Assembly (NCBI GenBank): GCA_905178155.1 | Contig: CAJINV010000018.1 | Location: 1,178,501 to 1,242,500 of the forward strand | DNA: 64,000 nt | Direction of reading: 5' to 3' | Origin: Amoebophrya sp. A120 | Lineage: Eukaryota > Protista > Dinoflagellata | Shown here: positions 601-51,700 of the stretch, piece by piece | How the letters are laid out: every line of letters begins with the position of its first letter | Position numbering within the stretch: position 1 is the first letter of the stretch | Notes under the pieces: model-generated | What the model was told of the DNA's origin: nothing | Seen by the model: only the letters and a program-made list of their open reading frames with translations | The model's database searches: none | Program-made: the position numbers and the translations under genes

Positions 601-3600
601 CTTCTCGACGTTGTCGCCGCCTCTTCTCTGCATCTATGGTAAGAAAAAATCCCCCCTCCCCATACCAAAGCGGGATACTTCAGAAAAGTTGTGATGCAGA
701 TTTGAGGCCATAGATCGTCTCTGTATTGCCAGAAGGCAAATCCAAAGACCTGGCCGCGTTCTGCCGGCAATTTGTAATGCTGTATGGCCTACGGAGGATA
801 TGCCTGCCTTGCTAAGTGCCTACGCAAAAACGCCCCTACTCCGGCTTTGTATCTGTTTGCAGTCCTCTACTGCAAGACAAATCCGATTTGTGTACACAAA
901 ACCCGCATCACAGATTTCCATTTCGATATGGGGAGGGGGGATTTTTCCTTTTGATAGCATCTGTGCTCTCTTCTTTTTCAAGTTCTCCTGCTCCGTTTCC
1001 AGCCTCCTTTGGATGATCTGCGCCCGGTCCAGGCGTATCAACTGCAAATATGTTGGGGTCCTGCCTCTGGAACGCTGCAACTTCTCATGCTACGTCTGGA
1101 TCGTGCAAGACTCTGTGTTGCAAGATTGCCACAAGTGGTTAACTTTTGACGAAATTGAAAGCGGCATATAATTTCCTTTGTGGGATAAGCAGGCATGATA
1201 GAGATCTCACAGAATCTGTCACACTAGGTGGTCCTGCATCCCAGACCTCATGAGCCATGGAAAACCTGCATGGCAAGTTTTCCACTCTTCCAGACCACCC
1301 AGACATATTTGCATCTGATAGGGAGTCGTTTGCGGAAGTCGTTCTTGCACTTTTTGGCGACAAACTCGGCCTGTAGGGCGTCCAACGCTTTTCCTTGGAA
1401 GTCGTATCAACTGTAAAAGTGTCTGGGTCTGGAACATTCCGACACTTGTCATGCACGTTTTGCATGAGCCCTGATGTCTGTGATGCATGCCCTAGCATCA
1501 CAGATTTTTTCGGAGCTTCTTGATGCCTATTCCGCATGACAAATGCCCTCTCCGCGTCGCAAAAAATACATTCCTTTTGGTACTCATGCAATACAGATTT
1601 TTCTGGAATCCAAATGCAGCATCACAAGTTCCAACCTTCCAGACCCAGACATTTTTACATTCGATAAGTCGACCAGATACCTGATTTATACACAGCAGTT
1701 TGTTTACCTCTAATACATTCTTCGACGAACAAAGCACTTAGCAACATCACACTTCGATTCATTTTCTTCTTCATGTCGATGCACAAGTAGTAGCGAGTAG
1801 TTAAGTGCAACTAACTAAGAATTCAGGCACTAAGATGAAAACGAACGCAAGATCATGATGCGCTGCACCAGAAAAAAAGCAACTAAAACAACACGTTGCG
1901 CCAACTATAATGACCTACATCTGTCACATAAATCAATTCTGTACCTGGCCAAGAAGTCCACCTTGCTGTCTGGCTGGTCGGTTGGCATGCTATCATCCTC
2001 TTTTTTGGTGACTGCCTGCACCTGCTCCTCCTCTTCTGCCCTGGTCCGGGCGATGTCGTATACGGACTTTTCGAGCACGGGCTCCTTCTCGATACCCGGC
2101 TCCTTTTTACGGTGCACCTGTGGTTCAGATTTTTTAAGTTTTTCATTTTCATCATCTCGAGATGATGAAAACAAAGAGACCTAGAACGCCCAGCGCTAGT
2201 TGTACTTCTGGTAGTGCAAGGACACAGGACGTTGGAAAATCGATCTTTCTACTAGGTTGTCGAAGCAAGTAAGTTGTCAAAAGTAAAAATGTGGTCTGGG
2301 TCTGGGAACTTGTGATGCTGGGTGGCGTCTCATGATGACGCTACAAATCCTGGCTCAGCATGACAAGTTTCTGAGCTCCTAGGTGTTGCCTATTCTGCAT
2401 GACAAACTGCGCTTCTGCATCACAGAAAAACGGAGCTCTTGGGTAACGTGCATGACAGATTTAAGAGTCATGCCAGACAAGCATGACAAACATGAACTCT
2501 TCCAGACCCAGACATTTTTACAGTTGATATAAGTAGACCACCTTGATCAAATTTTCTTCTTTTCTCCGCGCCCCATACTCCCCGTAGATCTTTGACACCA
2601 CGTCCTGTATGACCCGCTCAAACGTTACAATCTCAAACCTTACAATAGAATCTGGGTTTTGTATTGCATGATGAGCATGACAGACTCGGACAGCATTCCA
2701 CTTTCTGCAATACAAATTTCGCCAGATTGTAGTGCGGATTGGGACTCCAGAACTTGTCATGCGCAAGCCTATGGGAGTAAGCTAGGCAGTGCACTTCTTG
2801 CAACACAAATTCCAGATTCGATTGTAACGTGTGAGATTGTAACACCTGAGCAGGCTATATCCTGAAAGGAAACCTTCGAGTTCTTCTCGAGTTGAATCAA
2901 ATCCCGCAGTTGATTGTCTGACAGCCTCCCCGTCGGCGCGGACAGGGGCCGCAGCTGGTTGTCTTCCTTGATGTAGACCAGCGACTCGTCGACGATCTTC
3001 GACCGGGGGCCGTGCAGGTCAGCCCGGATTTTCCCCTCCGACACGTAGAACACAATTTTGTGGTAGTCCGGCGTTCCTTATCCTGCGCGACAACTTTTTC
3101 ACCTACAGTTGCCCTGCCAGTTCGCTTCTTGTGCAGTTGCACATCAAAGTACTTACTTAATAGGGCATTGCAAGCCAGTAAAAAATGCTTTTTCGAAGAT
3201 GACATCTACATGCTTTGTGGTTGCGTCGCTTGGAGCAAGTAGGTCGAGCCGCCACGACCTGTGATCATGCAAAAAAAGATAACAAAGCACTTTATTTTCT
3301 ACATCTCTGACTGATAATCTGACTGTCAGAAACGAATGGCATTCGGCTGGGATCGTGAGTTGTCGTGTCTGATATTGGTTCCTGCGCGAATCCGGGCTTC
3401 ATTTCCTGCTCCCCTCTCCTGCTGTATTTCAGCGTCATCTTGATGATGGCTAGTTCACCTGTGATAGGGGACGAAATTTCAATTTGTTGGTAAGAACTAC
3501 GTAGTTGCATGACCATTTGTCGTTTCGCTCTGGAGCAGCTGCATTCACTCCGGATACAGTCACCCAAGCAAAAAAGGTACAAAGCTAATCATCTTAGTAA

Positions 3601-6600
3601 ACACCGATCCCCTCAACGTGTATTGTGGGCTGCTTCCCGGCTTGCAAGGGGTCGGTGGGCCCGAGTTTGACGGAGTGGTAGATCAATCTGTCGTCGCGCG
3701 CTTGGAAGTATTCACAGACTTTTTTTCCCACTTCTTCCGTCGTTTTCTCTAGCCCGTCGAGCCTGGAACTCGGGTAATACGTCAGAATCCGCTTGGAGCC
3801 AAATACCTGGGGCGGGGTTAGTGAATTTGCTGGATTTCAACATCACACGATTCATCTTGCGCAAAGAGATTACGTCTCTGTAGTAAAAAGACAGTTGACG
3901 CGGATCGTGGCATCGAAAGCACTTCTTCACTTTATTGCTGGTCAACGAGATGCAACAATTTTCACAGCACCGGACGAAAAATGAATCCCGCCAAAAATCT
4001 TCTACTTACCTCTTCGATTTCTTTGAGGGCGTTACTTCTGCCGGTGAGAAACGACTCGACCGCTCTGTTCTCAAAGGGGTGCTTCAGCCTCCTGACGAGC
4101 TTGTCGTTTCGAAACTGGAAGAGCTCCTCCACCAGCTTCGGGCGCATTCTCCTCACGTCCTTGAACAGGGTCACCCGTCGGACCACCCCGTCCACCTGCG
4201 TGTAGGGGGAATACCGCTCGACTTTTGATTTCATGTAGTACGACACCTTTTCGCCGTGGTAGTACCGCGCTTGAAAATCCGCTGGCGTGATTTCTGTACA
4301 AAGAGTTTATTTTTTCCAAATAGATTTTGAAAGTCATTTAATTTCATGTTAGTTCTTACAGCCTCTTCTTCTGCCAGAAGCAGAGGCTGTAAAACCATTG
4401 AGTTGTTATTTTTGTAGCTGTATGCTCCCAGACTTGGAGCATACAGCTACAAAAATAACAAACCCACTGCATAGATCTCCTACAGCTCAGTTCTCCTGCA
4501 CTCATATAGTATACCAATCTTTTTGCTCCAGCTCGGTGGGTTGTCCAGGTACTGGACTTTTTCCTTGTTTTTGTCCGCCTGTATCCCACAGAAAAAGCCA
4601 GGCAAGGCATATTTGTAACGCAAAAAAAACACACAGAAAAGTCGCGCACTGCGTAACGGAACAGCATGGTATGTGCTCGCCCATAGCAATTTTTTTGTTT
4701 AGTTATATATGCCCTGCTTGCTTTTTTCTGTATGATAGCCTGGTCCCCGGCGTCGCCGGCACCGAGGTCACCGCCCTCCTCGTCCTCCTTGGCTTCCTCC
4801 GAGTCTCCCCCCTCATCGCCCGCTTGATCCGCAGTGACCAGCACGTACTCGTTATCCCATGTAAAAACGTCCCCACCCCATAGTCAAGATGGAGAATCGG
4901 CTAGACACATGCATCCACAAGGTTTGGCTGTTTTGCATGACAAGTTTGGCACCGTAGTGTAGTGCTGTTTGAGGTAGTGAAGCAGCATGACAGATCTAGT
5001 ATATCATGCTTATTGGAGCATGACAAACTCCAAAACACGACTAGAAAATGCTTCTCAGGGGGCTCCGCATGAGAAACATTTTCAGCATGCAGACTTGCAT
5101 GACAACTCTGGGGTGGGGACGTTTTTAAATACGATACTCGTAAAACCTGGGATCGTTCAGGTTCAGCGAGATTTCGGACGCGGGAATCTCGCTCTGCATG
5201 TTCATATCCTATGTAAAAACGTCCCCACACTGATGTAGTCAAGATGGGGACTCGGCTAGACAAATCCACAAGTTTTGGCTGTTTTGCATGACAAATCTGG
5301 ACTCATGTTGCAGAAGTGCTGTTTGAGCTAGCTCAGCAGCATCACAGATCTAGTATATCATGCTGATTGGAGCATGACAAATTCCAAAACACAAATGGAA
5401 AATGCTTCTCATGGGGCTCCGCATGAGAAACATTGTCAGCATGCAGATTTGCATGACAACTCTGGGGTGGGGACGTTTTCACGCAGGATAGTTCACCCAC
5501 AGGTTTTTGTGGTTCCAGACCAGGTCGACCTTGAGATACGGGGAGTCCGCCACTTTGTAACACCTGCCGGTGGAGCACTCGATGTAGATATCTTCTGTCA
5601 TTCCCCGCAGCCCCTGCCGAATCAGCACCCAGCAGTGCACGCGCTGGCCGGCATCCTCGGGCATGTCCTAATAAAAAAACATTCATTTAATATTGATGTT
5701 CTTCACTCCCCTAAGATTCCATTCTCGACAAATAAGAAAGATAGGAACCACAACTTATATGAGAGATTTCACATAATTCCACAATGAGCAGAGGCAAACC
5801 AACCTAGTTAGGAGCGCTATTTCAGTTATAACCTGCTCAGGTGTTACAATCTCAAACGTTACAATAGAATGAATTTGTGTTGCAAGAAGTGCATGATCTA
5901 CCCTACTCCCACAGGATTACGCATGACAAGTTCTGGAGTCCCAATCCGCAATACAATCTGGCGAAATTTGTATTGCAGAAAGTGGAATGCTGTCCGAGTC
6001 TGTCACGTTGATCATGCAAGACAAGTCTCAGATTCTATTGTAACGCTTGAGATTGTAACGTTTGAGCAGGTCATATCAGTCTCAAAAATATTTTACCTCT
6101 TCGTCGTCGCTGTCACTGCACATGGCCTCGTCATTATCGCAAGAAAAAAGTGTTACAGTTACACATTGTGTTGCAAGACCGGCAACACAGACGACCTTTC
6201 TCATGCAGGAAATGCTTGGGAGCCTCGTTTCCTTCCTGTTTTCCCTTATGATCTTCGCATTACAAGTCTTCTCTGCCACACAGAGAAAATTTGTGATGCA
6301 GAAACTCCAACAAATGTGTAACTGTAACACTTTTTTCTCACGATAGTCATACTTCCTTTTTGCCTCAAGCCTCTCCTTATCCGTCTGCTCCGTTATAAAA
6401 CCCGACTTGTTGAAGGGCGGGCGTTTCGGGATGCCCTCTGTCTTCGGTGCGGACTTGGAGCTAGAGCTGCTGGACGAAGACTATCAAATGCAAACATGTA
6501 TGGGTCTGGATAGTTGTGATGCAAATCTGTGAATGGTAGGCGCACTCGTAGACGCAGCCAAGCATGACAAGTTTTCGTTCTACTTGCTCTGTCTTTCGTT

Positions 6601-9303
6601 TTGCGCATGAAAAACTGTGTTCTTGCATGGCAGGCAAGAGGATCTTTTCCTGCTCATGCATCACAGACTGAGTTTTAAGAGTCAACATGCCAGCCGAGCA
6701 TGAGAAACTTGCACTCATCTTGTTCCAGAGGACCCAGACATATTTGCAATGCATAAAGACCCGGAGGGAACGATCTCGTTTCGCTCGTCCAACACCGCCA
6801 GTTCGACGGCGCAGTGCTCCATAGTTTCACACTTCGTAGCGATAAACCTTTTGTTTTTTCACTTGTTGCATAATTTTCTAATCCTTCTCCATCCTAAATA
6901 AATGATGTTCTTGACGTGGCTGATTCATTGCTTGGTGCAACACAAACATTCCATATTCAAATCCTAAATCATGCATATTATACACTCGGTACATCAAAAT
7001 CTACTTTCTTAATACCGTGGCGCAAACCCGGAAACGCAGTAGGCGTCGTACCCAACTCCGATCAGCATCGAACATAGGAATATGCAATGCAAACATCCGC
7101 TTTTCCGCCCCGGGCGGTGAAAAAATAAAACAAGCTCATTTACTAGCTTGCATCCACATACTTTTAAACACCAGCATCTGGTGGATATGTTGACAAAAGG
7201 ACCTCCGAGTCAACGCCTGCTGTGCTGTCGTTCGCCTAAGCACGACATCTCGCTACCGTGAGGGTCCTCATCCTTTTGTGATTTTGGTGATGTACATGTA
7301 CAACTACCAGCATGACAATTTTCAGCGCACGGGTTGTAGTTCAACTTGAGAGTACAGATATCCATCTTGCATAGATATTATGCTAAAGTCGAAGGATATC
7401 CAGGCAAAAAACTGTGTAAGTGTAAGTTTCTTTGAGGAATAGCATCACAAGTTTGCTCTGCATAACACAGAAAACCTGTCATGCGTGGCTAGTACGTGAA
7501 AACACGCACGAAAATTGCCTCTGATGCATGTCCAGCATGACAAGTGTAACAGTTTTGCATTTTCTGCAACACAAACTTACACTTACACAGTTTTTTTCTT
7601 GGATAAAGGAGTCCCCGGCTCGCCAGTCCAAGACCGTGGTTGGACTCGGGATTACCTTGGGGTACTTGTTATCAAATGCAAAAATGTCTGGGTCTGGAAG
7701 GGTGCGAACTTGTGACGCATACTTGGATCACACAAAAATCTGTTATGCTTAGACAGCAAAGGGCGTTCCTTTTCCTGTCGCCGAAGGAAGGCGTTTGTCA
7801 TGCGGATTAAGCATTGGGAAACCGTCTCAAAACCTGTGACGCTAGGCCTTGCATGGCACACCTTGCTTCTGTGTCAAGCAGACACAGCATCACAAACCTC
7901 AGCAATTTTCCAGACCCAGACATATTTGCAATCCATACTTGTCCACGGGAATCAATTCCTCGTAGTTCAGTCGGTCCGCCACGTAGTCCGCGCAGGTCTG
8001 GTACTCATACAGTTCTTGGTACGGCAAGTGCGTGGGTTTTATGGTCGTGGGCAGAAATTTCGGCACGTCGCACTCGTTCGGGGGACACAGGAAAAGAAAA
8101 CGGTTCCCGTACACCTGGTGAGAAAGTTGATTTTCCACCTCCTACCTAGTCGGAGAGAAGATTTTAATAGTCTTTACTTCCACGACCTCGACCCCCGTAA
8201 GTAGCTGCGATAAAGAAAAAGAACCGAAGATAATAATTGATTTTGATACTTAAATCGACCTGGATAAAATTACCTGTCACAACCCACACATGGCATGCAA
8301 GCAACTCTATTCGTACAACGGGTGGTCGGATTGCCAACAAGAAACGCAAGTGCTGGCATGAGTCGATGAAATAGTTGCATGAAGTGAAACAAGTCAAAGT
8401 GTAAAAAAGCTGTAGATGAAGCAACTTCCAATATAATTCCATACCGACAGGAACTGCTGCTCGAATTCTGACACATGCTGCAGCAGCAGGTCTTCTTTTG
8501 GGGAATTGGACTTGTAACTCGGTGGTATGTTTTCCGTCGTGCTGTCCCGAAACCGACGTGACCGCACCTCCTTCTGGTTCACCCGGGCTTATTATCCGGT
8601 GGAAAAGCAGTACAGCACCATAGCAGACAGAGACTTTCATGCCTGTTCTTACGGTTCTTCTTCTTTTCCTGTCTACGTGTTGACAACTGGGGGTTCTTGT
8701 TGCGATGGCAACAAGAAGTCGTGGTCGATGTTTTTTTCATTAAAAAAATATGGACAATGAACAACAAAAATCAATGTAAATTTGCCGTTGATGGTCGTGC
8801 TCCTGAACTACATGCCAAATTATCGGAGACCGAAAAAACCGCATCGCAAGGATCATCTTCTCGGCACAATAGAACTCGTTCTGCAGTAGTGCTGTCCACC
8901 AAAAGTTTTTCCGGTCGATATTTTTGCCTTCATCATTTCCACGGCATCGGCCTCTTGTTTCTTCGCCGCTTCTATCAAATGCAAATATCCCTGGATGTCT
9001 GGAAGGTTGCAACTTGTGATCATGCTGTCCTTGGATTGTTCTAAAAAATCTGAATTGCATGAAAAGCAATAGGGGTCCAGTTTGTGCTTCGCGGGGAGGG
9101 CATTTGTCATGCGGTATAGAAGGCATCAGGAAGCCCTCAAAAAATCTGTGATGCTAGGGCATACAATACTGGCGTCAGGGGTCTTGCAAAATATGCATGA
9201 CAGTCTTCCAGACCCAGACATTTTTGCAATCAATAGCTTCTGCCGCGGCCGCCGGGTCCGCGGCGGCGCCCTCCGCGGGAGGCGGTGCGGCCGGGGCGGA
9301 CAT
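601..9303 (-). CDS. DRC7: Dynein regulatory complex subunit 7 (CCDC135); multi-exon, 3' end runs off the window
   Basis: Joined exons give FLCPPNECDVPKFLPTTIKPT, PSPTTVLDWRAGDSFDFS, LCSMLIGVGYDAYCVSGFAP, RVHCWVLI, VWNHKNLWVNMQ, LDNPPSW, SVYDIAR and FRKRLLDRAQIIQRRLE; ATG at 9303; GT-AG introns plus 14 IEs. Confidence 0.88.
635..956. mobile_element. IE, family C (poly-C/poly-G subterminal TIR), in DRC7 CDS
   Basis: TAT..ATA ends, GCATC direct repeat; removal gives AQMQRRG. Confidence 0.9.
1036..1320. mobile_element. IE, family A (TIR TATCAAATGCAAAAATGTCTGGGTCTGGAA), in DRC7 CDS
   Basis: Diverged repeat AGGCG/GGGAG; removal gives KRLLDRAQ. Confidence 0.88.
1405..1666. mobile_element. IE, family A, in DRC7 CDS
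   Basis: AGTCG direct repeat; removal gives YLVDFQGK. Confidence 0.9.
2275..2529. mobile_element. Family A element inside a canonical GT-AG intron of DRC7
   Basis: TAAGT direct repeat; left end TGT; near-identical to 35152-35403. Confidence 0.85.
2608..2859. mobile_element. IE, family D (TIR TATRACCYGCTCA..GTTACAATCTCA), in DRC7 CDS
   Basis: TCCTG direct repeat; removal gives SFQDVVSK. Confidence 0.9.
4853..5136. mobile_element. IE, family B (TIR TATCCTGWGTAAAAACGTCCCCACCCCA), in DRC7 CDS
   Basis: CTCGT direct repeat; removal gives RFYEYVL. Confidence 0.9.
5205..5490. mobile_element. IE, family B, in DRC7 CDS
   Basis: GTTCA direct repeat; removal gives LWVNMQ. Confidence 0.92.
5827..6075. 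mobile_element. Family D element inside a canonical intron of DRC7
   Basis: TCAGT direct repeat; long TIR. Confidence 0.87.
6135..6345. mobile_element. IE, family G, in DRC7 CDS
   Basis: GTCAT direct repeat; removal gives RKYDEAM. Confidence 0.9.
6482..6755. mobile_element. IE, family A, in DRC7 CDS
   Basis: AAGAC direct repeat; frame restored. Confidence 0.9.
7081..7373. mobile_element. Degenerate IE in DRC7 CDS
   Basis: Only a 7-bp TIR (TATGCAA..TTGCATA); removing 298 nt gives DFSI(I/F)LCSML. Confidence 0.8.
7397..7605. mobile_element. IE, family G, in DRC7 CDS
   Basis: AAGGA direct repeat; removal gives GDSFDF. Confidence 0.9.
7670..7937. mobile_element. IE, family A, in DRC7 CDS
   Basis: CTTGT direct repeat; removal gives VDKYPKVIPSP. 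Confidence 0.9.
8973..9235. mobile_element. IE, family A, in DRC7 CDS
   Basis: GCTTC direct repeat; removal gives AAEAAKKQ. Confidence 0.88.
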
Positions 9304-21545: not shown

Positions 21546-22391
21546 TTAACACCCCGCCTTCCGTAACACCTTGGCGAGATCCGCTTCGTTTCTGTAGAAC
21601 ACCATAAACTTGTTCTCTTCGCGCTTCCCACGCCCGTAAATCACCGTGTTGGTCTGCCTTTCCAAACTGCGAATGTTGACCCCGCCGCGGCCGATGAACC
21701 CACCGACGCTGCCACGCACGACGAAGGTGTGCACCTTCGCGTCGCGTGCCACGTTGAGGAACTCTTCCGACTTCTTCCGGGACCGCGCGTCAGCCCCGGA
21801 CGATCCACTCGCTTTCTCCACTTGCTTCTCGCGCAACAGAAACAACGAATCCAGGTCCCCGCCCGCCCGCGCGAGCATGCTCGCGGTCAGCGGGCGCGTG
21901 GCCCAGAACGCGTGGTTGGTGCGGTACACGGAGTTGTCCCGGTCCGCGTTGGGCGGCAGCTCGTAAAACCGCAGGGTATCATTTAGTCCGACGTTGGGCC
22001 TTCCCGTGCTGACCGTGAACCAGCACGCCGTGTCGTGCACGTTCTCGAGCCGGATTTGCAAGTGGTGAAACAGCGCGTCGCTGTCCATGCGGCAGTCATG
22101 GATGATCTTCTCCACCGAGTCGTCTTCCAGCAACTCCCGCAGCCACGCGACCAAGGGGTCACTTTCCTCCTTGCCCAGCAGGTCCAGGATGAAGCAGCTT
22201 GCTCCATCAAGCGTCGCCAGCTGCACGATGCAGAGCTGCCCCACACGACTCAGGTCCACGCCCTCGCTGTCCACAGCAATCACCGGGGTGTGCCAGTTTT
22301 TCGGCTTCCCGAAAGCTGCCGTCAGCGTCTGCTCCGCGTCGGCAGAGAACTCGCTGATCAGAACCGGAGATGAAGCTGCGGTGGACGGCAT
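21546..22391 (-). CDS. DEDD 3'-5' exonuclease (EXD1/Egalitarian-like) with C-terminal KH domain; intronless
   Basis: IAVDSEG..LCIVQLAT, KIIHDCRMDSDAL, NVHDT, WATRPLT..AGGD; KH GxxG in GGFIGRGGVNIRSLE. Confidence 0.85.
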   Translation of the reverse strand: MPSTAASSPVLISEFSADAEQTLTAAFGKPKNWHTPVIAVDSEGVDLSRVGQLCIVQLATLDGASCFILDLLGKEESDPLVAWLRELLEDDSVEKIIHDCRMDSDALFHHLQIRLENVHDTACWFTVSTGRPNVGLNDTLRFYELPPNADRDNSVYRTNHAFWATRPLTASMLARAGGDLDSLFLLREKQVEKASGSSGADARSRKKSEEFLNVARDAKVHTFVVRGSVGGFIGRGGVNIRSLERQTNTVIYGRGKREENKFMVFYRNEADLAKVLRKAGC

Positions 22392-26500: not shown

Positions 26501-29500
26501 ACCAGCACTACAAATCTAATTTGTAATGCTGGGCTAATTTGTAATGCAACTTACACTAGTACGATGCTTTTGCATTGCATATTCCGCAACGGGACGGGCG
26601 GAATCAGGAGTTTCGGCGTTTTCACCTTGGTCAGCTATCAAGTGCAAAAATATCTGGGTCTGGAAACTTGTGATGCTGGTTGAGAAAGAGGAGGAAACCT
26701 CAGTTGACTGCTAAGCATGACAAGTTTTGGAGTTGCTGCAGTCTTGTCTATTCTGCATGACAAAGTGAGCTTCTGCATGAGAGAAAGAAGGTGGGCTTCG
26801 GTCACGCGCATGACAGACTTAAGAGTCATGCTAGCCAAGCATGACAAACCTTGCATCTTTCCAGATCCAGACATATTTGCGATGCATATCAGCAAAAACC
26901 GGTCGATCTTCTCTTTCTCCACGTTAGATTCGAGCGCCTCGGTGAGCTCCGTGAGTCCGTGCGCCTTGGCGGTCAGGTACGCAAGGGGGACCTGATAAAT
27001 CGATCGAGGGTGATCATGTTGTCACAGTAATATTTCGAGTTGTACTACACTGCACAGCATCTTTACTTCTGAAAAAAGTCCGGACGACGCTGGAGGTTGC
27101 GATCTCTGCAAAAGAACCAACACAACAGTGGCTGGTGGTGCACACTTTTCAACTTCAACATCTACTCATACAAAGTGCAATTTCCAACATGCTCACCTGT
27201 CCCGTTTCCGCCAACACCTTTACTCGCTCTTCCACGCTTCCCAGCATGAGGGCGTTGTTGAACCTCCGCATGCTGTCCTGTCTCTTTTCCGCGATGGTCA
27301 GCATTCGGCCCAGCTTCAGCAAATTCCCTGTCAGCAAGTAGTGGAAGGAGAGCGCGTCCAAGTTTTTCGTCTTTTGCAGCGACATCTCCAGAATTTCCGC
27401 GGAGCCTTGGCGACTCGCTTCCGTGCCCAACCGCGTCCACACGGTGGCGTCCTGGAGTTCTTGGGCCTGCAAGCAGAAAAATTTGGTGTGGTCGTGTATC
27501 TACTTTGATGTCTATTGTAAAGTACTAGTTCTGTTTCTCGCCTGAAGATTTTGCAAACATGATGAAATCACTTTGAAATTCAAATTACGGGCCAGAATCG
27601 TGATCTTCTTATGCATGCAGTGGGAGTTAGTAGTTGTTTTAAAAACGGAGCAGGCATATTAAAGCAAAAGCTCCTGTAGTCCGTTTAATATGCTACAAGA
27701 AAAATCGATCCTCTACCGCCTTCATCGCCTCCGCGATATGGCCGTACTCCAGCGCTATCAAATGCAAATATGTCTGGGCCTGGAAGAATGCCAGCAGGTT
27801 TGTCATGCATATTTGCATGACCCATGATGCCTGCGTTTCATGGCCTAGCATCACAGATTTTGAGCCGGCTTCCTGATGCCTCTTCCGCATGAGAAATGCC
27901 CTCTCCGCGTTGCACAAACTGGACTCCTCTTGCTTGTCATGCAATACAGATTTTTTAAAAATCCAAAAACAGCATCACAAGTTGCAACCTTCCAGACCCA
28001 GACATATTTGCAATGCATAAGCGCTAGATTGAATCTGGTATGCTGGTCCTCGACGAAATGCAAGGCGACCTCTGGGTAGCCCTTCTTTTTCAAATATGAA
28101 TTGCAAATATGTCTGGGTCTGGAACGCGACAACTTGTCATGCCAATCCTGAATCATGCAAAAATCTGTGTTGCATAAATGCCAAAGGCTGTCAACTTTTG
28201 ACCAAGTTGAGAGGAGGTTTCTCATGCAGGAAAGGCATGGCAGAGATCTAACAGAATGTGTCATGCTAGGTTCTGCATTCCAGACCTCATGGGTCATGTA
28301 AAACCTGCATGACAAACTTGCATGCCTCCAGACCCAGATATATTTGCAGTGGATATCAAATACCCGATTACCACGTTGCCGCCGAGCCTGCCGTTCTTGA
28401 TCCACATTTTCACGTCGTCGAAATTTTTCGACGCCAGAGACAGCTTGAACAGGTACTCCGTGCAATTCAGCCGTTGCTTGTGGACCTGGTAGTGGTAGTA
28501 GTCACCAGTTACGTTCTGGAATTTGTAATGCGGATTTGCTTTCAGAAACAAATTTGTAATGCATGACTGCAGTAGTTACTCACCTCCCCCTTTTCCCGGT
28601 CGATGTAAAACAAGTGCTGTTTGAACACCGCCTGAACATTATCAAAAGGAAAAATGCCCCCTCCCCATAGCGAAACGAAGTTTCTGATGCTGGGTTTCCG
28701 TACACAAATGCGATCTGTCTTGCAGTAGAGGACTGCAGGCATATGGCAAGCCTGAGCTGCGAGGTTTTGACGTCGGCGCCTAGCATGGCAAGCGTCTTTG
28801 CTGTAAGCCGAGCAGCATCACAAACCGCCTGCATGATGTGGCGGACTCTCTGGGCTTGCCCTCTTACAAGACAGACAGGATTTGTGGTCACAAATCTGCA
28901 TCACAAATTTTCAAACGGATGCGCCTTCACTATGGGGACGGGGTATAGTTTTGCCACGCAATAAATGTAGATCGGGTGCTGCAGGGAATGGATGATCCCC
29001 GAGTCCCCGTTGAGCAGGCAGTATTTGACGTGGGACAGGGTGCTGTAGACGAACACGGAAGTCTTATCCTGAGTAAAAACATCCCCACACCAGAGTCAAG
29101 ATGGGGATTTTGCAACACAAACCTAGAACTTTTGCGGGTCACGCATCACAAGCTGCAGTCCGTAGTGTAGTGCAGGTTCGCAAGGCCAGCTGCGTCAGAA
29201 ATCCATCTGCTCATCCTGTTTACAGCATTACAAATTCCAAAACACGACTAAAAATGCCTCTCCTGGCGATGCGCATTACAAATGTTCCTGTCATTGCAAA
29301 TCTGCATGACAACTCTGGTCTGGGGACGTTTTTACTCAGGATAATTCTGCGAGTCCCAGGCGCCGGATTTTATCCGAATGTTTTCGTGCAGAGTGAAAAG
29401 CACCTCGAAGTTTTTGTCGACCAAAACCAAGTTGTGCTTCGAGAACAGGGCGCAGTACTGGAAGTTCGCGGACCAGACCACGTACCGGACCCCGCCGGCG

Positions 29501-32432
29501 ATGGAAACCTCGTTGACCACCTTCCGGGCGACGATGTCGAAGAGCACGGACCGTTCCTCCACCGCGTTTTCGCGCCGGCACTTCAGAATGATCCGGTTCA
29601 GACCCCCGCAGAAGATGTTGTCAATGCAGGAATTCTGTCCGATCGGGTGGTCGAACTTCTTCGTGAGTTCGTTTTGGAAGCTGTAGATCCCGATCGAGGT
29701 GCCCGACTGCTGGAGCACCGCAAACCGGTTGCGCTGGACGAAGCACACCGCGGAGCCGTAGCCGGACAACGGCGGCTGCTCCCCAATGCAGAGATCGTAC
29801 GACCCCGTTTCGATCTGGTAGTACACCAAGACCGCGGACCCCTCGGAGGGCGAAAATTGGTTCACCTCCAGGGACTTCAAACCCGACTGCATGGCGTTCG
29901 TCGGCCGGCGCAGCGTGCAAAGAGTTATGAAAGCCTCAGAATGGAAATCCTCAAAGTGGAAATAATTTGTGATGCATGAAATGCACGGCAAAAAAGACTG
30001 TATTGCAGAGGACACAATGGAGACCGACTATTGTCCTGTTAGGGGTTCAGCATTGGGCTGCTGATTAGCACGAGAGAAGGGCACCCCTTTCCCTACCTAG
30101 CATGACAGACATGCTTTGAGTGCCCGGAAAATTTGTCATGCGCCGACTAGAAATGGCACTTCACCTGGAGTTGTTTTTTTGCATTACAAATTATTTCCAC
30201 TTTGAGGATTTCCAACCTGAGGCTTTCATAAGAGTTTTGGTGAACGTTCGGCCGTCCGGCTGCTCCAAGGGCTCCGCCACCAGGTTCCGCTCCGCGCCGC
30301 GGACGTGGAACAGTGTGTTCTTCGACAAGTCCACCTGCGCCAGCGCCCGCTCGCGATCCAGCTTGAAAACCACCATGCCGCCGTCGTGCCCGACCGCGAC
30401 CAGTTGGGAGGTGGGGTGGGTAGCGATGACCTGATACAGCAAGTGTTGAACAAGCACATATATCGATAATTCTATGCCGGTGGTAAAACTTTCTTCATGA
30501 TCCTAAATCCTAAAACCCTAAACTCCAACTGTACTGTGGTGAAAAAAAACACGAAAATATTACAACCTAGTAGAGATGTGATGAAAGTTAAAAATTCAGA
30601 GTCTAGAAACAAATAACTATCAACCAAAACGGATCTTGGTAAGTACCCAGAATCTGTCCGTCTCGCGGCGGAAGGTGTGAATCTGCGTCCTTTTCGTGCA
30701 GTCCCAGACCCGTATTGTGCGGTCTTCGGAGTTGGATATGATCAAGTCCTTCCTGGGGTGGAAGCAGACGGAAGACACGTTCGAAAAGTGCCCCTTCAGC
30801 GTGTCCACCTCCCATGCCTTGGACTCGCTCATCCGCCACAATTTAATCAGCCGATCGTCCGCCCCGGACACGACTAGCGGTAGGGTTGGGTGGAAGCTGG
30901 CCCAGTTCACCCCGCGGTCGTGTCCTTCTAGCACGTACTTCACCACGGCATCGTACGTGCCGAACAAATCGTTGGCCCCGTTGTTGCCGTTACTCGCGCC
31001 GTTCCCGGAGAAATCGCCCGAGCCAGGCATCATGCCGCTCCCCATGCCGGACCCGCCGCGGCCCTTGTCGCGCAAACCGGAAATGTCCCAAATCCGGATG
31101 TATCAAGTGCAAACATGTCTGGGTCTGGGAGATTGCAAGATTTGTCATGCATATTTTGCATGATCCATAATGCCTGTAATGCATGGCCTACCATCACAGA
31201 TTTTTAGAGCGCTTCCTCATGCCTATTCCGCATGACAAATGCCACCTCCGCGGAGCACAAAATTTACTCCTCTTACTGGTTACGCAATACAAAATTTTTT
31301 CGAATCCAGAGACAGCATCACAAGTTTAGAATCTTCCAGACCCAGACATTTTTGCATTTGATAGGATGGACTGGTCTAGGGACGCGGAGCAAACCATGTC
31401 CTCTGAGGGGTGGAATTGCGCGCACATCACGTAGTGGTTGTGGCCCGTGAGGACCGCGATGCAGCCGCGATCTGTTTTTGATATCCGAGATCAGAACAGC
31501 ATTATTTCTTCACAATTTATCGTGTTACAAAAGCAAGACGCAGATCATGCTACTTAAATTCGTCTTCTGATGCAAGAATTTTCAAGTATCCAAAGAATTT
31601 AATGTACTTTGCCAATTCCAAATCCGCACGGTCTGGTCGTCGGAGCTCGACAAAATCCAGGGTGCCTCATGGTGAAACTGCACCGTTCGGATGTATATCG
31701 ACTGTAAAAGTGTCTGGGTCTGGAAGAATTCAGGTTTGTCATGCTTGTCTGGCATGAAGACTCTTAAATCTGTCACGCACGTTACCCAAGAGCTGCGTTT
31801 TTCTGGGATGCAGAGACAGTTTGTCATGCAGAATAGGCAACACCTAGTAGCTCAGAAACTTGTCATGCTGAGCCAGAATTTGTAGCCTCATCATGAGACG
31901 CCACCCAGCATCACAAGTTCCCAGACCCAGACATTTTTACATTTGATAATGTAGTCCAGATGCCCTTGCAGCGTAAATATCGCCCTTTTCTGCTTGTAGT
32001 TCCACACTTTTATCTTGTAGTCGTCGCCGCCGGAGCAAAACAGTGGCTGCGAATTGTGAAAGCAAACCCCTCGCACAGGCCCGCCCTCGTGCTCTGGGTT
32101 TTTGGTTTTGTGTATTTGAATATGAAAGATGAGAAAATTATACAAATAGCAATAGGTTATTCGCATTCACCAAAAAATAAATTTTGTCATGATACAGACA
32201 GCGCATACAATTTTTCACGGTTCACATCATCCGATACGATCGATCAAGTTCCTTTACCTCCCTCAAATTTCTCGATCAAAGTGCCAAATCGGTAGTCCCA
32301 GAGTTGGATGGTTCCGTTGTGTAAACTCGCTAAGCACCACGACAATTTCGGGTGAAACGAAACGCCCTTCACCCGGTTCGACTTGGTCTCGCACTTGACG
32401 AGCATCTTGTTGTTGACCGCGCCGCCCGACAT
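23586..32432 (-). CDS. COPA: Coatomer subunit alpha; GT-AG introns plus 13 IEs
   Basis: [89 protein letters not shown] and C-terminal [17 protein letters not shown]. Confidence 0.97.
23801..24121. mobile_element. IE, family C, in COPA CDS
   Basis: TGGGA/TGGCA repeat; removal gives TNALPLSFD. Confidence 0.88.
24487..24748. mobile_element. IE, family A, in COPA CDS
   Basis: ACTGG direct repeat; removal gives EPPHQFLFLR. Confidence 0.9.
25054..25315. mobile_element. IE, family A, in COPA CDS
   Basis: GTCGC direct repeat. Confidence 0.9.
25717..25978. mobile_element. IE, family A, in COPA CDS
   Basis: CCGGG direct repeat; removal gives ALAPGESP. Confidence 0.9.
26439..26581. mobile_element. 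IE, family E (TIR TATGCATTGCAAAAGTATCGTACT), in COPA CDS
   Basis: TTCCA/TTCCG repeat; frame restored. Confidence 0.87.
26636..26888. mobile_element. IE, family A, in COPA CDS
   Basis: TCAGC direct repeat. Confidence 0.9.
27756..28019. mobile_element. IE, family A, in COPA CDS
   Basis: AGCGC direct repeat; removal gives FNLALEYG. Confidence 0.93.
28095..28355. mobile_element. IE, family A, in COPA CDS
   Basis: TCAAA direct repeat; removal gives [10 protein letters not shown]. Confidence 0.93.
28640..28963. mobile_element. IE, family C, in COPA CDS
   Basis: AACAT/AATGT repeat; removal gives PIY(I/V)QAV. Confidence 0.87.
29065..29343. mobile_element. IE, family B, in COPA CDS
   Basis: AGTCT/ATTCT repeat; removal gives SGAWDSQ(N/T)SVFVY. 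Confidence 0.9.
29926..30230. mobile_element. IE, family F, in COPA CDS
   Basis: AGAGT direct repeat; removal gives [10 protein letters not shown]. Confidence 0.92.
31101..31363. mobile_element. IE, family A, in COPA CDS
   Basis: GGATG direct repeat; removal gives LDQSIRIWD. Confidence 0.94.
31696..31948. mobile_element. IE, family A, in COPA CDS
   Basis: ATGTA direct repeat; removal gives GHLDYIRTV. Confidence 0.94.
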
Positions 32433-36674: not shown

Positions 36675-38479
36675 TCATTCCCCTGACGCCCCTGCCCACG
36701 TAGAAGAAGTCGCACCGCTCCCACTATTTGCCCCGGCGTGCACGGAGAGCCCGGCGCAGTGCTCGATTTTGTTCCACAGAGCCTCAGCGCAGAACTCATC
36801 CGGGATCGCCGTCAAATCAAACGCGGACACGCGATCCAATGACACGTACCCCTTCACGCCCTGGCTCACCACCGGCGGCGCGCCAGCCGCCGCACCGGTG
36901 GCGGAGTTGCCGCTGGGGTCCTCCTATGGATTGCAAATATGTCTAGGAGGTCTGGAAAGTTGTCATGCGAAAAGCTGTTTTCATCACACACAGCCAAGCA
37001 TAAGAAGGTGTTTTCATGCCTGTGTGCTGCGCATTGTGCATGGCAGAGTCAGTGCGTTATTTTCGCATGACAAACACGTGGGGCCATTCGCTCGAGAGCA
37101 TGACACAGAGTTCAGAGGCATGTCAGGCAAGCATGACAAACGGTCATGCACTTTTCCAGACCCAGACAGATTTGCATTTCACACCGCCCAGCGAATGCCC
37201 GTGGCTTGTTTGTACAGTTTATCAAATGCAAATATGTCTGGCTCTGGAAGACTACGCGACTTTTGGTGCAGGTTTTCCATGACCCAGGAGGCCTGGACTG
37301 CAGGACCTAGCATGGCAGACTCTGTGAGTAGATCTCTATCATGCCTATTCTGCATGAGAAACTCCCCCTCTTCACCTTGGTCAAAAATAAATGGACGCCG
37401 GCTTTTGGCACTTTTCATGCAACACAAATTCTTGCACGATTCAGATGTAGCATGACAAGTTGCTATGTTCCGGAACCACGACACACCTTTGCACTTGATA
37501 CAGTTGGTACTTCTTCCGGTGCAGGAATTTCCGCCACCGCTTCTCCGAAGCGGAATATTTCTGTTGCTCCCGGGCAGTGTAGACCTTTTATTTATTTTTT
37601 GCGGGGATGTTGTAAGAAGAATCGAAGATCTGACTTAATTGTTGCATTACTCGGTTGCGTTGTTCGTTATGCATGCTAAAAACTTCTACAGGAAGAAGTA
37701 AAACTTTACCTCTCTGCGCACTTCGTCGACCTGCAGACGGAGATCCGTCTCCTTTGTTTGCAAGGCTAGCACGGTCTGCTGGAGCTCCGCCTTCTTCTTC
37801 TGCATGGCTATGATCCGCTCCTGCATGCGCACCTCCGACGCAGACCACAGGTGCCGCTTGCCCCCGGTCGGGCCAGAAGGAGCGGTTGCTGCACCGTCAT
37901 CATGCCCACCTTCACGACCCGGTTGCGCTGCGGCAGCAGAGCTTTGCTTCATTTCCTCTTCGCCCCGGTTTATTTGCGAGAAAAACCCGGCCTGCATGTC
38001 CATTTCCCTTTGCTTCGCTTCATTCTCCGAAACCAGCTCCTTCACCTCCTTTCGCAGTTTTTTAATATTCGTCATCGCCGATCGCACATCCTGCAGGTCG
38101 TGGAGGTCGCGGAGAGCGTCGTCGACCTCCTGGGCCAGGTTGGAGTTGCTGCTGGAGGAAGAGGATCAAATGCAAAAATGTCTGGGTCTGGAAACTTGTA
38201 ATGCTAAAAGTGAACGATAGACGCACTGCAATACGCAGCTACGCATGACAAATTTTGCGGCTGCCATGTCTTACGTATTCCGCATGGCAAACTGCGTTTT
38301 TGCATGACAGGCAAGATGGCCTTTTCGTGCCTATGCAACACAGATTCTCGAGTCATGCCAGACAAGCATGACAAACTTGCATTCTTCCAGACCCAGACAT
38401 TTTTGCATTTTGATAAAGACGTGGACGCCCCTAGAACCGTGGAAGCGTTAGCAGTAGTAGCACCTGCAGCTTCTGCCAT
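36675..38479 (-). CDS. Spc24-like kinetochore (Ndc80 complex) protein; 3 IEs
   Basis: N-terminal coiled coil, then QLYKQATGIRW..VKGYVS..VSAFDL..FCAEALW, resembling the Spc24 C-terminal domain. Confidence 0.55.
36925..37183. mobile_element. IE, family A (diverged)
   Basis: CCTCC/CCGCC repeat; right end ACA. Confidence 0.82.
37220..37500. mobile_element. IE, family A
   Basis: CAGTT direct repeat; removal gives KYQLYKQ. Confidence 0.88.
38164..38415. mobile_element. IE, family A
   Basis: AAGAG/AAGAC repeat; left end GAT. Confidence 0.85.
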
Positions 38480-38989: not shown

Positions 38990-39096
38990 CATCATTTTTT
39001 TCCAGTTGCACAAGTGTCCTCACGTCATCTATCATCAAGAGACGGAGAAAGAACTGACACTGTGTCTCTGGACAAACGGCAAAAGCGGAACGGTTA
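38990..39096. repeat. ~105-bp dispersed direct repeat, copy 1
   Basis: Shares CCAGTTGCACAAGTGTCCTCACGTCATC..GAGACGGAGAAAGAACTG.CACTGTGTCTCTGG with 42713-42820. Confidence 0.85.
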
Positions 39097-42712: not shown

Positions 42713-42820
42713 CATCATTTTTCTCCAGTTGCACAAGTGTCCTCACGTCATCCTCAACATAGGAGACGGAGAAAGAACTGCCACTGTGTCTCTGGGCAAA
42801 CCACGGAAGCGAACGGTTTA
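42713..42820. repeat. ~105-bp dispersed direct repeat, copy 2
   Basis: Matches 38990-39096; followed by TTTAGGGTTTCGGGTT. Confidence 0.85.
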
Positions 42821-45008: not shown

Positions 45009-46863
45009 CTACAATTCCCAAGACATCTTAGGGGCAGACTGGCAAAAGAAGAACGTAAGCAATAAGCTTAAAAACCACAATAACACGATTCCAGACCACA
45101 GCACCTTCTCACGCCGTTCCATGTTTCGTCCCGATACTGCACCTCCGAACCATATCGCCAACACTGTCGAGAACGGTACCGTCGCGCGTGGGGTGCCCGA
45201 CAGGGACGTGATCGAGGGGGTCGACGTCGCACTGTCCTCCACAGCGGCGGCGCGGTCGGTGTCACCGGTCGTGGCGTTGGGGACGGCGAGGGCTATCAAA
45301 TGTAAAAATGTCTGGGTCTGGAAGATTCTAAACTTTTAATGCTGTCTGGGAATTCAACAAAAAAATTGTATTGCATGACCAGTAAGAGGAGTAGACTTGG
45401 TGCTCCGCGGAGTGGGCATTTCTTATGAGGCACAGGCATCACAAAGTCCTCTAAAAATCGGTCATGCTAGGGCATGCATCACAGACATCATGGGCCATTC
45501 AAAATCTGCATCACAAGTCTTGCATTCTTCCAGACCGACCCAGACATATTTACATTTGATAAGGGCGGCGCCCCGGACATGCACGGAGGCCTCCACGGCG
45601 GCGAGGATGTACCGGACGGCTTTTTTGGGCGGTATCCTGCGTAAAAACGGGGCCCACACCCCATAGTCAAGACGGGGAATCGGCTAGACAAATCCACAAG
45701 TTTTGCGTGTCTTGCATGACAGATTTTTTGGTCTCGTAGTGTACCAGTCGCGTAGTTTAGCTAGTGCAGCAACATCACAGATATAGCTTACCATGCTGAT
45801 TTGAGCGCGACAAATCTCAAAACACCGCCAGAAACTGCTTCTCATGGGGCTCCGCACGAGAGACATTTTATGCATGCAGATTTCCATTACAACTCTTGGG
45901 TGGGGACGTTTTTACAAATGATAGGCGGCGCGGACTTCTTTTGCACCGCACGGACCAGTATGAAATGCAAATATGTCTGGGTCTGGAAACCTGTGATGGT
46001 AAAACGTGGATGATGGAAACAGTTCCGAACGCAACCCAGCATGACAACTCTGCAGAACGCTTTCTCATAGGCGACCCGCATGAGGGACTGCGTTTTTGCA
46101 TGCACATAAGAGCCTGCGACTCATGCCGGCTATGCAATGCAGATTTTCTAGGTATAGTGGAAAGCTAGCATTACAAGTTCCAACCTCCCAGGCCCACCCA
46201 GACACGTTTGCAACCCATAGCCAGTTTGTTAAAGCAGGTCATCAGATGGCCATCGTCGCTGTCCTCCGCGATGCCAAGGATGTAGGTCAGCACGCCCTGG
46301 TCCGCCCACAGTCTGTACTGCCACTTCTCGTCGCTGAGAGTCGCGACCGTGGGGAGCTATCAACTGTAAAAGTGTCTGGGTCTGGAAGGTTGGAACTTGT
46401 GATGCTAACTTCGGACTCTAAAAATTTCTGTTTTCCATGACCAGCAAGAGGAGTCCGGTTTGTGCTACGCGTGGAGGGCATTTGTCATGCGAAATAGGCA
46501 TCAGGAAGGCCTCTGAAAATCTGTGATGCTAGGGCTTCCATGACAGACATTCTGTGTCATGCAAAAACAGCATAACAAATTTCGGATTCTTCCAGACCCA
46601 GGCACTTTTGCAATCGATATGAACATGATGTCGCAGTACCGGTGGAACTCACGGACACCGGTGGCCGGGTCCGCCGTGACAATCGTATGCGAGGGAAAAA
46701 AACGGGCTCGTGACAAGGAAGAAAAAGCACTTTTGATCACCAGCCTGGGCGTCGGGCCACTTGCGAGACAAGTAGATACAACGGACTCTTCTGCGCACAT
46801 GCTAGACAAGTTTTCTACTTCCGCAAGATCATCAGCTCCAGATGAAGTACCAAGCTTGTTCAC
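45009..46863 (-). CDS. Hypothetical protein with 4 IEs; weak resemblance to a longin or adaptor small chain
   Basis: Continuous frame after IE removal (..KWQYRLWADQGVLTYILGIAED..KKAVRYILAAVEASVH..); ends uncertain. Confidence 0.55.
45294..45561. mobile_element. IE, family A
   Basis: AGGGC direct repeat. Confidence 0.88.
45633..45923. mobile_element. IE, family B
   Basis: GGCGG direct repeat. Confidence 0.88.
45959..46219. mobile_element. IE, family A
   Basis: ACCAG/GCCAG repeat. Confidence 0.86.
46358..46619. mobile_element. IE, family A
   Basis: GGAGC/TGAAC diverged repeat; frame restored. Confidence 0.85.
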
Positions 46864-48224: not shown

Positions 48225-48710
48225 TCATTGTGGATCTTGTGATCGCCCCCGGACGAAAATCCGGACAGAAAAAACAAGGAACCAACTTGGGCGTCTGGAT
48301 CGCTGTAGACAGGCTTCTTGGCCACCTTTCTCGCTGTGTCCAACTCCGACAGTCAAAAAAAAAAACGTGTCGTGCCTGACCGACTGCTGACCGAAATTAT
48401 CTTGTGACAGATATCCAACCGATCTCTGGACTTACTTTTGCGACCATGAGTTGTGTAGCTTCAAAGAATAGAACAAAATCGCGAACGCAAACGAAACACT
48501 CTTCTAATTGCGGGCGTACAAGGTGTCATGAGCGTATCTTACAACTTTGAAAAAGTTTATTGCGGGATGATTATGTCGTGCCTGGCTTCATATTCATAGG
48601 TGAGAAGACCATGCGCCTCATCGAATAAATGGAGCGTCTGCAGAATCTGCGCATCTTTAAAGCACCTTCAGTACAAGCAACAGACCTGCAGCTTCCCGTA
48701 CTTTTTTTCT

Positions 48711-51700
48711 TCACGCTGTATCTTCTATCATCTTCAAAATCATTTGCACATCCCGAACGCAGCCCATGATAATCGGGCATCGGTCGTGGATTTTCTCTGG
48801 ATTCACCTCCAAGATCCGTCCGCACTTCCCGCGAAACATGCCGGTATTGGTATTGTTAGGAAAAATCTTCACTCCCCATGTCGAAAAGGAAATTTGTGAT
48901 GCTAAAACAACCGCACCGACATTGCCATTGTCCATTATCACTGGGGAAGCAAGCCTCCGCAGGCGCTGGAGGGGCATAGGGTCAGCTTCGTATTGCAGGA
49001 AGGCCGCATCGCGGCCAGATCGCCAGCCTAGGTAGGGGCGTTTGTGTCTAGTTGCTCAGCATTGCAAACGGCTGCCCTTTAGGCCAAAAAGCATGACAGA
49101 TGGCTTCCACAATGGGACGGAAGCTTCTGCCCTTGTCTTCTTGCAAGACAGATGCGATCTGTGACCACAAATCAGCAACCCGAATTTTTGGAAGCGTGCC
49201 TTTTCAATATGGGGAGGGGTGATTTTTCCCGACAATAATTGGCCAACCCACCGGCTTGTTCCGTGATCAAGGCCATCGGGAAGCCCTCGTACAAGATATC
49301 ACAATGAAAACTGCCCCCATGATCCCAAACTTGGCAGCATTTGCATTGCAAACCTTTCCAATAGAAACATTCCCCGTCTTACATATCTCAGCATCACAAA
49401 TTTTCCATGCTGAATAGCTCAAATTTGTCTTGCGAAGGACCCCAACAGTGGCCGGATCTGTCATGCAGAAGGCACCTTGCGGTTGCGCACCCAGATTCTG
49501 CATCAGGAAGGCTCGCAATCCTTTCATGCAAGACAAAAAGCTTTCATTTGGAAACTTTGCATGACAAACTTCTGCAAATTCCGGGGTGGGAGCATTTTTC
49601 ATTGCAGTACAAGACCCGGAGTTTCCCTTTGGTCGATTTCTGGTCCGCGGGGTACAGGAAAACGCCGCCGTTATTACAATGAAAAATACCCCCACGACCC
49701 CCGATCTTGGGCGCATTTGTCTTGCAAATCTTTCCATATGAAACATGCGCCATCTTGCATCTATCAGCATCACAGATTTCCGGTCGTGAATTATAGCAAG
49801 AATTTGCATTGCGAAAGATCCCAGCAAGAGCGGCGCTTGTCATGCAGGCGCTGCGATACACGCCTAGACTCTGCATCAGAAAGATTCATACTCCTTTCAT
49901 GCATGACACAAAGTTTTCATTTGGACGCTTCGCATCACAAACTGTTGCAACTTTGGAGGTGGGGACATTTTTCATTGTAATAGCCGTAGAGGAGACTTCG
50001 GTGGACGTCGGATACCATGGACCCCACGTACCGCGCGGTGTAATCGTTTTCCTTGCAGTAGTTCACAAAATCATGGATCCCTTTCTCCTGTCCTGTGCAA
50101 AAGTATCGGGCTCGTACTGGAGTACAGGCGCAATGTTGCTGCACGACATAAGCAAGACGACTCTGATAGTAGATATGGTCCTACCATTACAAATTGCACT
50201 GTTTTTAATTTTCCTGTACTCCGATAAAAACTCATGCTAGCACTTTACTTTTGCAATCCATACATCCCAGTGCTTGGAGTTGCCTTCGTTGCACGAGTAG
50301 ATCTTCTTCCCGCCGTTCGAAGGTATTTTGATGTTTTCGATAAACATGAACTCTCCGATGGAGGGGTCCAATTGGTACCGCTGCACGCCGGTAATAGTTT
50401 CCGGCGCGGATATTACCAACTCGCAACCGGCACCGTACCTGATGAAAGTTGTGCATTATTTTTGCGGTCGTGATTTTATCTGATTCTGATCATGCGGTTT
50501 TGATTTGCATACAAAATTCTGATGTTTTCATCATTCTGTGTCTGTTCACAAAGCGATGTCGTGCATGGCGAAAGCAGAAGTAGGTACATTGAATATCCCG
50601 CAGCCACGATTTCCGTTCCGGGTCGCAAAATGTCGTCCACCGTCGCTTTTCCGCTCATGGGTATCTATCCGCCAGAAAAGAGTTTGCGATCGCGCAGTTT
50701 GTGATGCGTATATCTTGATGGCTAGGCGAAGGGCCAAAGGTTGTGTTTCTTGCATGTTGTAGCGTGTATTAGAATGCTAGAAAGTTTTGCACGAAGCCTT
50801 CGTTTATTTCTACGCTCCTCTTCTTTCCGCATGACAAGTTTGCCACGATGTTGGTACTAATTTTCTGTGTGATAGTGACAGCCTCTTGTAGATGCTGAAA
50901 ATCGAACCGACAGAACCGGTATGCAATGCAAATTTACGTCTGCATCTCCAAGGAGTACACATGCGCATTTCACATCGCACAAAAAGCATCATGTATCAGC
51001 GGCAACAAGGGTCCTTTTCTTGTCCCGGAAGGAATGCATTTGTATTTCTCATGCGGCGTAACCAGGGCTGCAACCAAGCATCATATGAGAGAAGTCCTCA
51101 CCTTTTTAGAAACAGTAGCTATCGCCGACTAGAACCCTCGGAGCGGACCTTGCCAGAGCCAGCCATTCAAAAACTGCATGACAAAGAACCCTCGCAGGAG
51201 TGCTGTTCCAGGCCCAGACATATTTGCAGTTGATAAACGTTACAGTCGATGTTTGAACTTCCGTCCAGGGGATCGAAGGCGACGCAGAATATGCATTGCA
51301 AACATGTCTGGGTCTGAAAGGATGCGAACTTGTCATGCTAAGTCTGGATGGTACTTACAAAAATTTGTGTTGCATGACTACCAAAAGCTGTCCAGTTTTG
51401 AACAAGTTTAGAGGCAGTTTGTCACGCAGGATAGGCATGATAGGGACGTCGCAGAACCTGTCATGCTAGGTCCTACATTCCAAACCTCATGGGGCATGGA
51501 AAATATGCATGAGAAGTTTGCACTCTTCCAGACCCAGACATTTTTGCAATGCATACAGAAACAGGCCCCGCTATTTCCGTCTTCTCCAGAAGATGCGGTA
51601 GTACTGCTATTGTTGTTCTCCCCATGAACGACGATGGCGTCTTTTTCCTCTTATGAGAGTGTCAGGATTGAAGTCGACAGAGTTGTAATGCATAAAATCG

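Follow-up and report, generated by a model that had tools for sequence, protein, structure and literature searches.

The closest described relatives of the introns considered here are the introner elements of the marine parasitic dinoflagellate Amoebophrya sp. A120 (Farhat et al. 2021, PMC7789003), reported from the same organism and, as set out below, the same elements, which begin with TAT, seven variable bases and AAA and carry 5-bp direct repeats over the intron border. In the available portions of that paper the borders are called 'variable' and it is left open how Amoebophrya splices its non-GT-AG introns, which number in the tens of thousands, and the pertinent passages of three other papers (PMC11282704, PMC11453091, PMC12005148) repeat the 2021 picture. 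Here, we analysed a window of 64,000 nt from A120 contig CAJINV010000018.1 (positions 1,178,501 to 1,242,500; all coordinates below are window positions), in which TAT...ATA elements with terminal inverted repeats (TIRs) are densely packed, and we located the cuts by which they leave the transcripts of DRC7, COPA, FBPase, PRP38B and a fifth gene. With high confidence, a single fixed cut is used, at which four bases of the upstream repeat copy and one base of the downstream copy are kept in the mRNA.

Introners of Micromonas, Aureococcus, Polarella and Fritillaria (PMC11282704, PMC12130899, PMC13326754) are likewise TIR elements resembling miniature inverted-repeat transposable elements, with target duplications, and are spliced as introns; by the available accounts, however, they carry or co-opt recognisable splice dinucleotides, whereas both termini of the A120 introns are free host bases. 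The A120 families in the accessible part of PMC12130899 (20 of 58 rows) are labelled inconsistently, with 12 said to co-opt both splice sites, 4 the 5' site and 4 the 3' site, where a fixed rule would have every TAT...ATA family labelled 'both'.

The code described for Euglena, N3-CDG...CH'G-N5-6|R, was derived by the same logic of non-slidable junctions (PMC12501133, available text) and shares with A120 a paired triplet whose distance from each cut is fixed, a 3' spacer longer than the 5' one and arbitrary terminal dinucleotides. The lineages are unrelated, though, and the spacers are 3 and 5-6 in Euglena vs 1 and 4 in A120, and the triplets CAG/CTG vs TAT/ATA; instead of CDG at +4 to +6 and CH'G at -8 to -6, the A120 introns have TAT at +2 to +4 and ATA at -7 to -5. 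Euglena also prefers a purine at the first exon base, whereas A120 has no such preference (139/255 elements, background 0.54, p=0.90). The likeness to euglenid nonconventional introns drawn in the initial annotation thus holds as an analogy of paired triplets, fixed offsets and a longer 3' spacer, but not as the Euglena code itself. Euglenoid plastid group III introns (5' NUNNG, 3' ANNUNNNN; PMC9240083, PMC3534033, both as far as available) share a free first base, U+2 and, close to the 3' end, a conserved A with free bases after it. In contrast to these AU-rich plastid introns of 91-119 nt, those of A120 are nuclear, longer and not AU-rich, lack G+5, have their A at -7 rather than -8 and show the anatomy of a TIR transposon, and we regard the two as resembling one another only.

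The final window list holds 69 elements of 141-884 nt, which include nine multi-member families; copies of family 1 are divided 13 vs 15 between the two orientations. A perfect 5-nt direct repeat flanks 47 of the 69, and any other repeat length gives at most four perfect cases each, in a list that was itself partly selected by a 5-nt repeat score; at further loci, such repeats were found at the borders of 226 of 300 elements. Seven candidates were dropped: those at 16901, 32158, 36431, 40307, 44323 and 61621 were unconvincing members of a first list of 66, and 20131 was removed later. The end profile, an inverted repeat starting with TAT followed by seven variable nucleotides and at least three A, fits the A120 introner elements, and a scan of the window against Rfam gave no match. 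Proteins of A120 retrieved with exon queries match the window exons at 100%, 95% and 100%; they are COPA (P0001), DRC7 (P0121) and PRP38B (P0124, a gene name taken from Table S6 of PMC7789003 as available), exact across the exons and on the minus strand. On sequence grounds, the TAT...ATA elements of the window, with their 5-nt repeats, are to be equated with the introners published in PMC7789003. One further locus matches window positions 7397-7937, with the exon and one element identical and the other element at 98.5%, and comes, judged from this match, from another assembly of the same organism or of one very close to it. In A25 all classes start with TT, and the relatives AT5 and Kv use GT-AG only.

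The cut was expressed as k, the number of bases of the upstream repeat copy that are retained in the mRNA, and diverged repeats were used to narrow it. The repeats have diverged in 22 of the 69 elements; 17 of these, in five genes, were informative, 54525 and 56924 were uninformative, and 13046, 36925 and 38164 were left out. The initial annotation had listed such sites with their repeat pairs, correctly so in the window sequence, and had argued from protein conservation that only base 4 satisfies all of them, giving introns of the form N-TAT...ATA-NNNN. All genes with tested junctions, and all introns given below, lie on the minus strand.

Eight of the informative sites come from spliced contigs in the Logan collection, where contigs X1 and X3 derive from one sample whose RNA nature is a guess. 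These two join FBPase exons at 11 places, comprising ten elements and one GT-AG intron, and every contig skip equals the element plus 5 nt, although the joints carry the flag 'between: not known'. Three of the FBPase joints cannot be slid and give exactly k=4, namely 50084->50264 around element 50089-50262 (intron 50085..50263, present in both X1 and X3), 52127->52863 around element 52132-52861 (intron 52128..52862, ends TT..CC) and 52940->53087 around element 52945-53085 (intron 52941..53086, ends GT..CC). Two others slide by two bases: 50913->51235 around element 50920-51235 (intron 50916..51236) allows k=4-5, the range that had been proposed from the protein, and 50660->50875 around element 50666-50874 (intron 50662..50875), an intron new to the list, allows k=3-5. 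The exact joint at 52132 also yields the Q-N-A-C that had been predicted. At 50089 the proposed cut was borne out, but the site carries less weight than it had been given, as the intron is also GT..AG at k=4 and is therefore weaker evidence for a non-canonical rule.

In COPA, the joint 23795->24122 around element 23801-24121 (intron 23797..24122) slides by three bases, occurs in X1, X2 and X4 and allows k=2-5, and a contig piece from 29343 with no other letters gives k=4-5 for element 29065-29343 (intron 29061..29344), where P0001 allows k=4-6 and the predicted Q-N-S is read. The eighth site, element 58569-58836 in PRP38B (intron 58565..58837), had been set down as a soft counter-example, since the register would make it read D rather than the usual H; a contig piece (58837-59076, no other letters, k=1-5) and P0124 both give this D, in line with D-D-Y, and the supposed exception turns out to favour the rule. 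Among the joints listed for the FBPase/PRP38B contig search (15 of 36), 11 were gene joints and 4 came from repeats or other sequences; the COPA search, which included the DNA-like X5, gave mostly repeat-to-repeat rows and two gene joints among those listed (15 of 231). Raw reads of two RNA runs, of which only 3 and 9 aligned, each in part, were uninformative.

A hairpin flanked by direct repeats is the classic setting for template-switch artefacts, and the joints might in principle have arisen by reverse-transcriptase switching or assembly error at such hairpins, or represent empty-site DNA, the more so as the RNA status of X1-X4 was guessed and the sequence between the joined parts was flagged as not known. 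We consider this highly improbable. The same contigs skip GT-AG introns, removal of the elements restores conserved proteins, the exact joint at 52132 has no shared sequence on which to switch, and the DNA-like X5 continues from the exon straight into the element, with neither of the COPA joins shown.

The nine remaining informative sites rest on deposited proteins, which are predictions and may overlap with the contigs in their source data, but which cover different sites. In DRC7, P0121 allows k=2-4 at element 1036-1320 (intron 1032..1321, ends CT..CC at k=4), just as had been claimed from the RLLDR reading, k=3-5 at 3079-3374 (intron 3075..3375), k=1-4 at 7081-7373 (intron 7077..7374) and k=2-4 at 8593-8920 (intron 8589..8921). 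In COPA, on a protein basis only, P0001 allows k=1-5 at element 26439-26581 (intron 26435..26582) and k=3-5 at 28640-28963 (intron 28636..28964), the latter with the predicted Y-I. P0125, retrieved with a single exon query, allows k=0-4 at element 45959-46219 (intron 45955..46220), which rules out k=5, and k=2-4 at 46358-46619 (intron 46354..46620), and P0124 allows k=2-5 at the PRP38B element 58351-58503 (intron 58347..58504), which starts with TAC. The initial annotation thus fared well in five of its six named predictions or counter-cases; the sixth, W-A-D at element 36925-37183 (predicted intron 36921..37184), is known from sequence only.

Taken together, k=4 is admissible at 17 of 17 informative junctions in five genes and several element families, with k=5 ruled out at eight sites, k below 4 at five and k=1 at 13. 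The intersection of the ranges is k=4, also when FBPase is set aside (1036 and 29065 suffice), and contigs and deposited proteins agree on the register that had been proposed. Under independent uniform cuts, a common register would be expected with a probability of 0.012 for the eight RNA sites, 7.7e-5 for all 17 and 1.2e-4 without 50089. Beyond the diverged sites, P0121, P0001 and P0124 map 54 introns (35 elements and 19 GT-AG introns), with k=4 admissible in 35 of 35 elements, and in DRC7, COPA, PRP38B and FBPase together, each of the 45 mapped element introns is removed as element plus 5 nt and is compatible with k=4. At this register the element introns measure 146-889 nt and lie in nuclear genes.

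It has to be weighed whether base 4 is merely the dominant cut, with minor or family-specific registers beside it as the published 'variable' border implies; the legend of Fig. S23 in PMC7789003 (available text) gives 1-5 nt, the contigs report only the majority path and drop rare variants, and exact k=4 is reached at three sites only, all in FBPase and in one sample. At the 58351 joint (window 58346-58506), moreover, the X3 contig has one base that matches neither repeat copy and would replace the Y of P0124; no such row occurs in X1, and the odd base may be an error, an allele or editing. Given the agreement of all 17 sites across genes and families, and given that with intact repeats a published position is the aligner's choice, we hold such additional registers to be improbable.

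A register set by the orientation of the element rather than the transcript, with k=1 for reversed copies, was likewise disfavoured, as family-1 copies lie in both orientations and each of the 13 sites able to discriminate gives k=4 and excludes the mirror register (chance about 1e-4); among the window elements, we found no family with two oppositely oriented copies that both discriminate. Element 52132 has none of the five repeat bases left, an interrupted stem and a predicted terminal-stem pairing probability of 0, and is still cut at k=4; 50920 and 52945 have poor predicted folds, yet are cut in register. Accordingly, the position of the cut goes with the TAT/ATA motifs and not with the repeat or a perfect stem. 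Since insertion adds the element plus 5 nt and splicing takes out the element plus 5 nt, the host sequence is restored at any landing site and in either orientation.

Which of the bases at the intron ends are constrained was read from a larger set. A pattern scan gave at least 128 further loci beyond the window, strands were assigned by a codon model trained on three proteins (minus for all ten window chunks with at least two elements, a set that in part overlaps the training genes), and end composition was taken from 255 strand-oriented elements with at least 3/5 repeat identity. In these, neither G at +1 (76/255, against a flank G of 0.30) nor an AG end (23/255, p=0.27) is selected, and GT...AG termini, as in U2-type introns, occur at k=4 in 8 of 255. 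The first base and the last four bases thus match the background composition, as expected from the proposal that they are arbitrary host sequence. That a +1:-4 pair lengthens the stem was rejected, with Watson-Crick pairs in 59/255, and +5 of the elements is mostly C.

Inside these free bases, the terminal triplets have not decayed evenly. In transcript sense, 223 strand-called elements (82 of them in plus-called loci) show 0 changes at +2, 2 at +3 and 9 at +4, and 4 at -5, 4 at -6 and 0 at -7. U+2, which is also invariant in U2-type introns, and A-7 are therefore invariant, while their inverted-repeat partners, -5 and +4, carry 13 changes; the finder treats both ends alike and gave 0 matches in 238 kb of shuffled DNA. 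In a locus-level permutation, this post hoc asymmetry has p=0.002, and with the strand threshold set differently p becomes 0.004 or 0.008. Other end profiles of the elements show this pattern too. A single strand bias cannot yield both asymmetries, because they require opposite mutational directions, and since transposition sees both ends alike, the pattern suggests that U+2 and A-7 are under selection at the RNA level. Changes at +3 are mostly to G, like the GT-AG donors here: at +3 these have A in 16 and G in 4 of 20 introns, and only 4 of the 20 carry G+5.

Our preferred reading, to which we assign a probability of about 0.5, is that the elements are removed by a relaxed spliceosome for which U+2 and a branch adenosine at -7 would take the place of GT-AG, a mechanism that we infer from the bases under constraint. 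The TAT of the element would land on donor positions +2 to +4, where the GT-AG donors of these genes are GU-R without a preference for G+5, and would thus act as a donor-like site that misses only its G. The invariant A of the 3' ATA would be the putative branch point, the 3' splice site would be counted 6 nt downstream of it, and the terminal hairpin would help to bring the ends together without setting the cut. Fixed short distances from branch point to 3' end are described for spliceosomal introns of some yeasts and excavates (PMC2483917, available part), and according to the accessible text of PMC13326754 the U2 spliceosome of the tunicate Fritillaria has adapted to non-GT-AG ends. A120 itself keeps nearly all spliceosome proteins and U2, U4, U5 and U6, with U1 undetected (PMC7789003, as available).

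Several observations weigh against this reading. The base that would pair with U2, two positions before A-7, shows no strand-specific selection (3' end complemented A110/C61/G21 vs 5' end A113/C59/G20), A-7 is predicted to be paired in the well-folded, young elements, and A at -7 is not fixed in the GT-AG introns of the window (7/20). The asymmetry statistic draws on 13 changes, with strands assigned from codons, and the laxest threshold for this assignment brings in one change at -7. Nor is base identity proof of a spliceosome, because Euglena introns also need specific triplet identities, with an excision machinery described as unknown (PMC12501133, available text).

The same fixed register could also be kept by excision outside the spliceosome, through a protein or a nuclease-ligase that binds the base of the TAT/ATA stem and cleaves 1 nt ahead of it and 4 nt beyond it, like the Euglena machinery. 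We think this possible, if rather unlikely. Neither G+1 nor AG is selected, U1 was not detected in A120, the young elements 1036, 29065 and 46358 have strong predicted terminal stems, fixed spacers beside a paired triplet also make up the Euglena code, and the introns of euglenids come off as circles and not as lariats (PMC11282704, in the part available). In the seven A120 introns that were folded, predicted end pairing is strong in three and weak or absent in four. On the other hand, the register is kept despite poorly predicted stems (50920, 52132, 52945), the constrained U+2 and A-7 come from two different pairs and not from one, and U+2 is the position of the GU donor. A wider form of the spliceosomal reading, which we offer only tentatively, is that a spliceosome that looks U1-less runs a second code beside GT-AG, ignoring terminal dinucleotides, reading U+2 and a transposon-supplied branch A-7 and counting to the cuts. 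Any TAT...ATA transposon with a 5-nt duplication would then make a perfect intron wherever it lands and whichever way it points, and the system would converge on the minimal determinants of group II/III lariat formation.

The gene models in which these introns were mapped are all on the minus strand and combine both intron types: DRC7 (601..8936, residues 1-785 of 839 mapped) has 14 element and eight GT-AG introns, COPA (23589..32432) 13 and nine, and PRP38B (53901..60403) eight and two. Complete elements are nested in two GT-AG introns of DRC7 (2275-2529 in ~2115-2543 and 5827-6075 in ~5667-6098), and a single element end lies at 24300 within a GT-AG intron of COPA. The ends of the GT-AG introns 8111-8445, 6846-7018, 5667-6098 and 50085-50263 resemble decayed elements in the same register, the first three with 7-9 of 16 terminal pairs, which suggests, from the letters of these ends, that old introners can turn canonical; a general terminal stem was not seen in the GT-AG introns, which show no excess at offset 3 (n=20). 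Table S5 of PMC7789003 (as available) reports an excess of apparent editing at intron ends, part of which may come from mis-registered junction reads.

Elsewhere in the window, the long elements 34408-34976, 52132-52861 and 54920-55803 (569-884 nt) are possibly composite, and tandem arrays occur at 3-360 (~46 bp x 7.8), at 52501-52653 within element 52132 (44 bp x 3.5) and at 61893-62032 (70 bp x 2). A 7-bp repeat at 17394-17429 (x 5) looks telomere-like. The minus strand further encodes a dual-specificity phosphatase domain at 17412-17987 and a 3'-5' exonuclease with a KH domain at 21549-22394, and a segment of ~90 bp was seen by eye twice, at ~38990-39080 and 42714-42800, in an apparently non-coding stretch.

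The elements themselves are already known and their main register is hinted at in published tables, while the exact rule and the U+2/A-7 signal appear to be new. Neither a fixed register nor the U+2/A-7 constraint is found in the available text, legends and tables of PMC7789003, the passages of PMC12621601 at hand do not mention Amoebophrya, and the literature searched, which excludes Roy et al. 2023 and other papers behind a subscription, holds no fixed register or A-7 constraint for this organism. The fixed register turns the 'variable borders' of A120 introns into a rule, which would correct gene models and splice-site tables, and it names U+2 and A-7 as two bases whose role can be tested. 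It provides a second, independent ruler-type splicing code beside that of Euglena, and it explains how these transposons can invade coding sequence in either orientation without cost.

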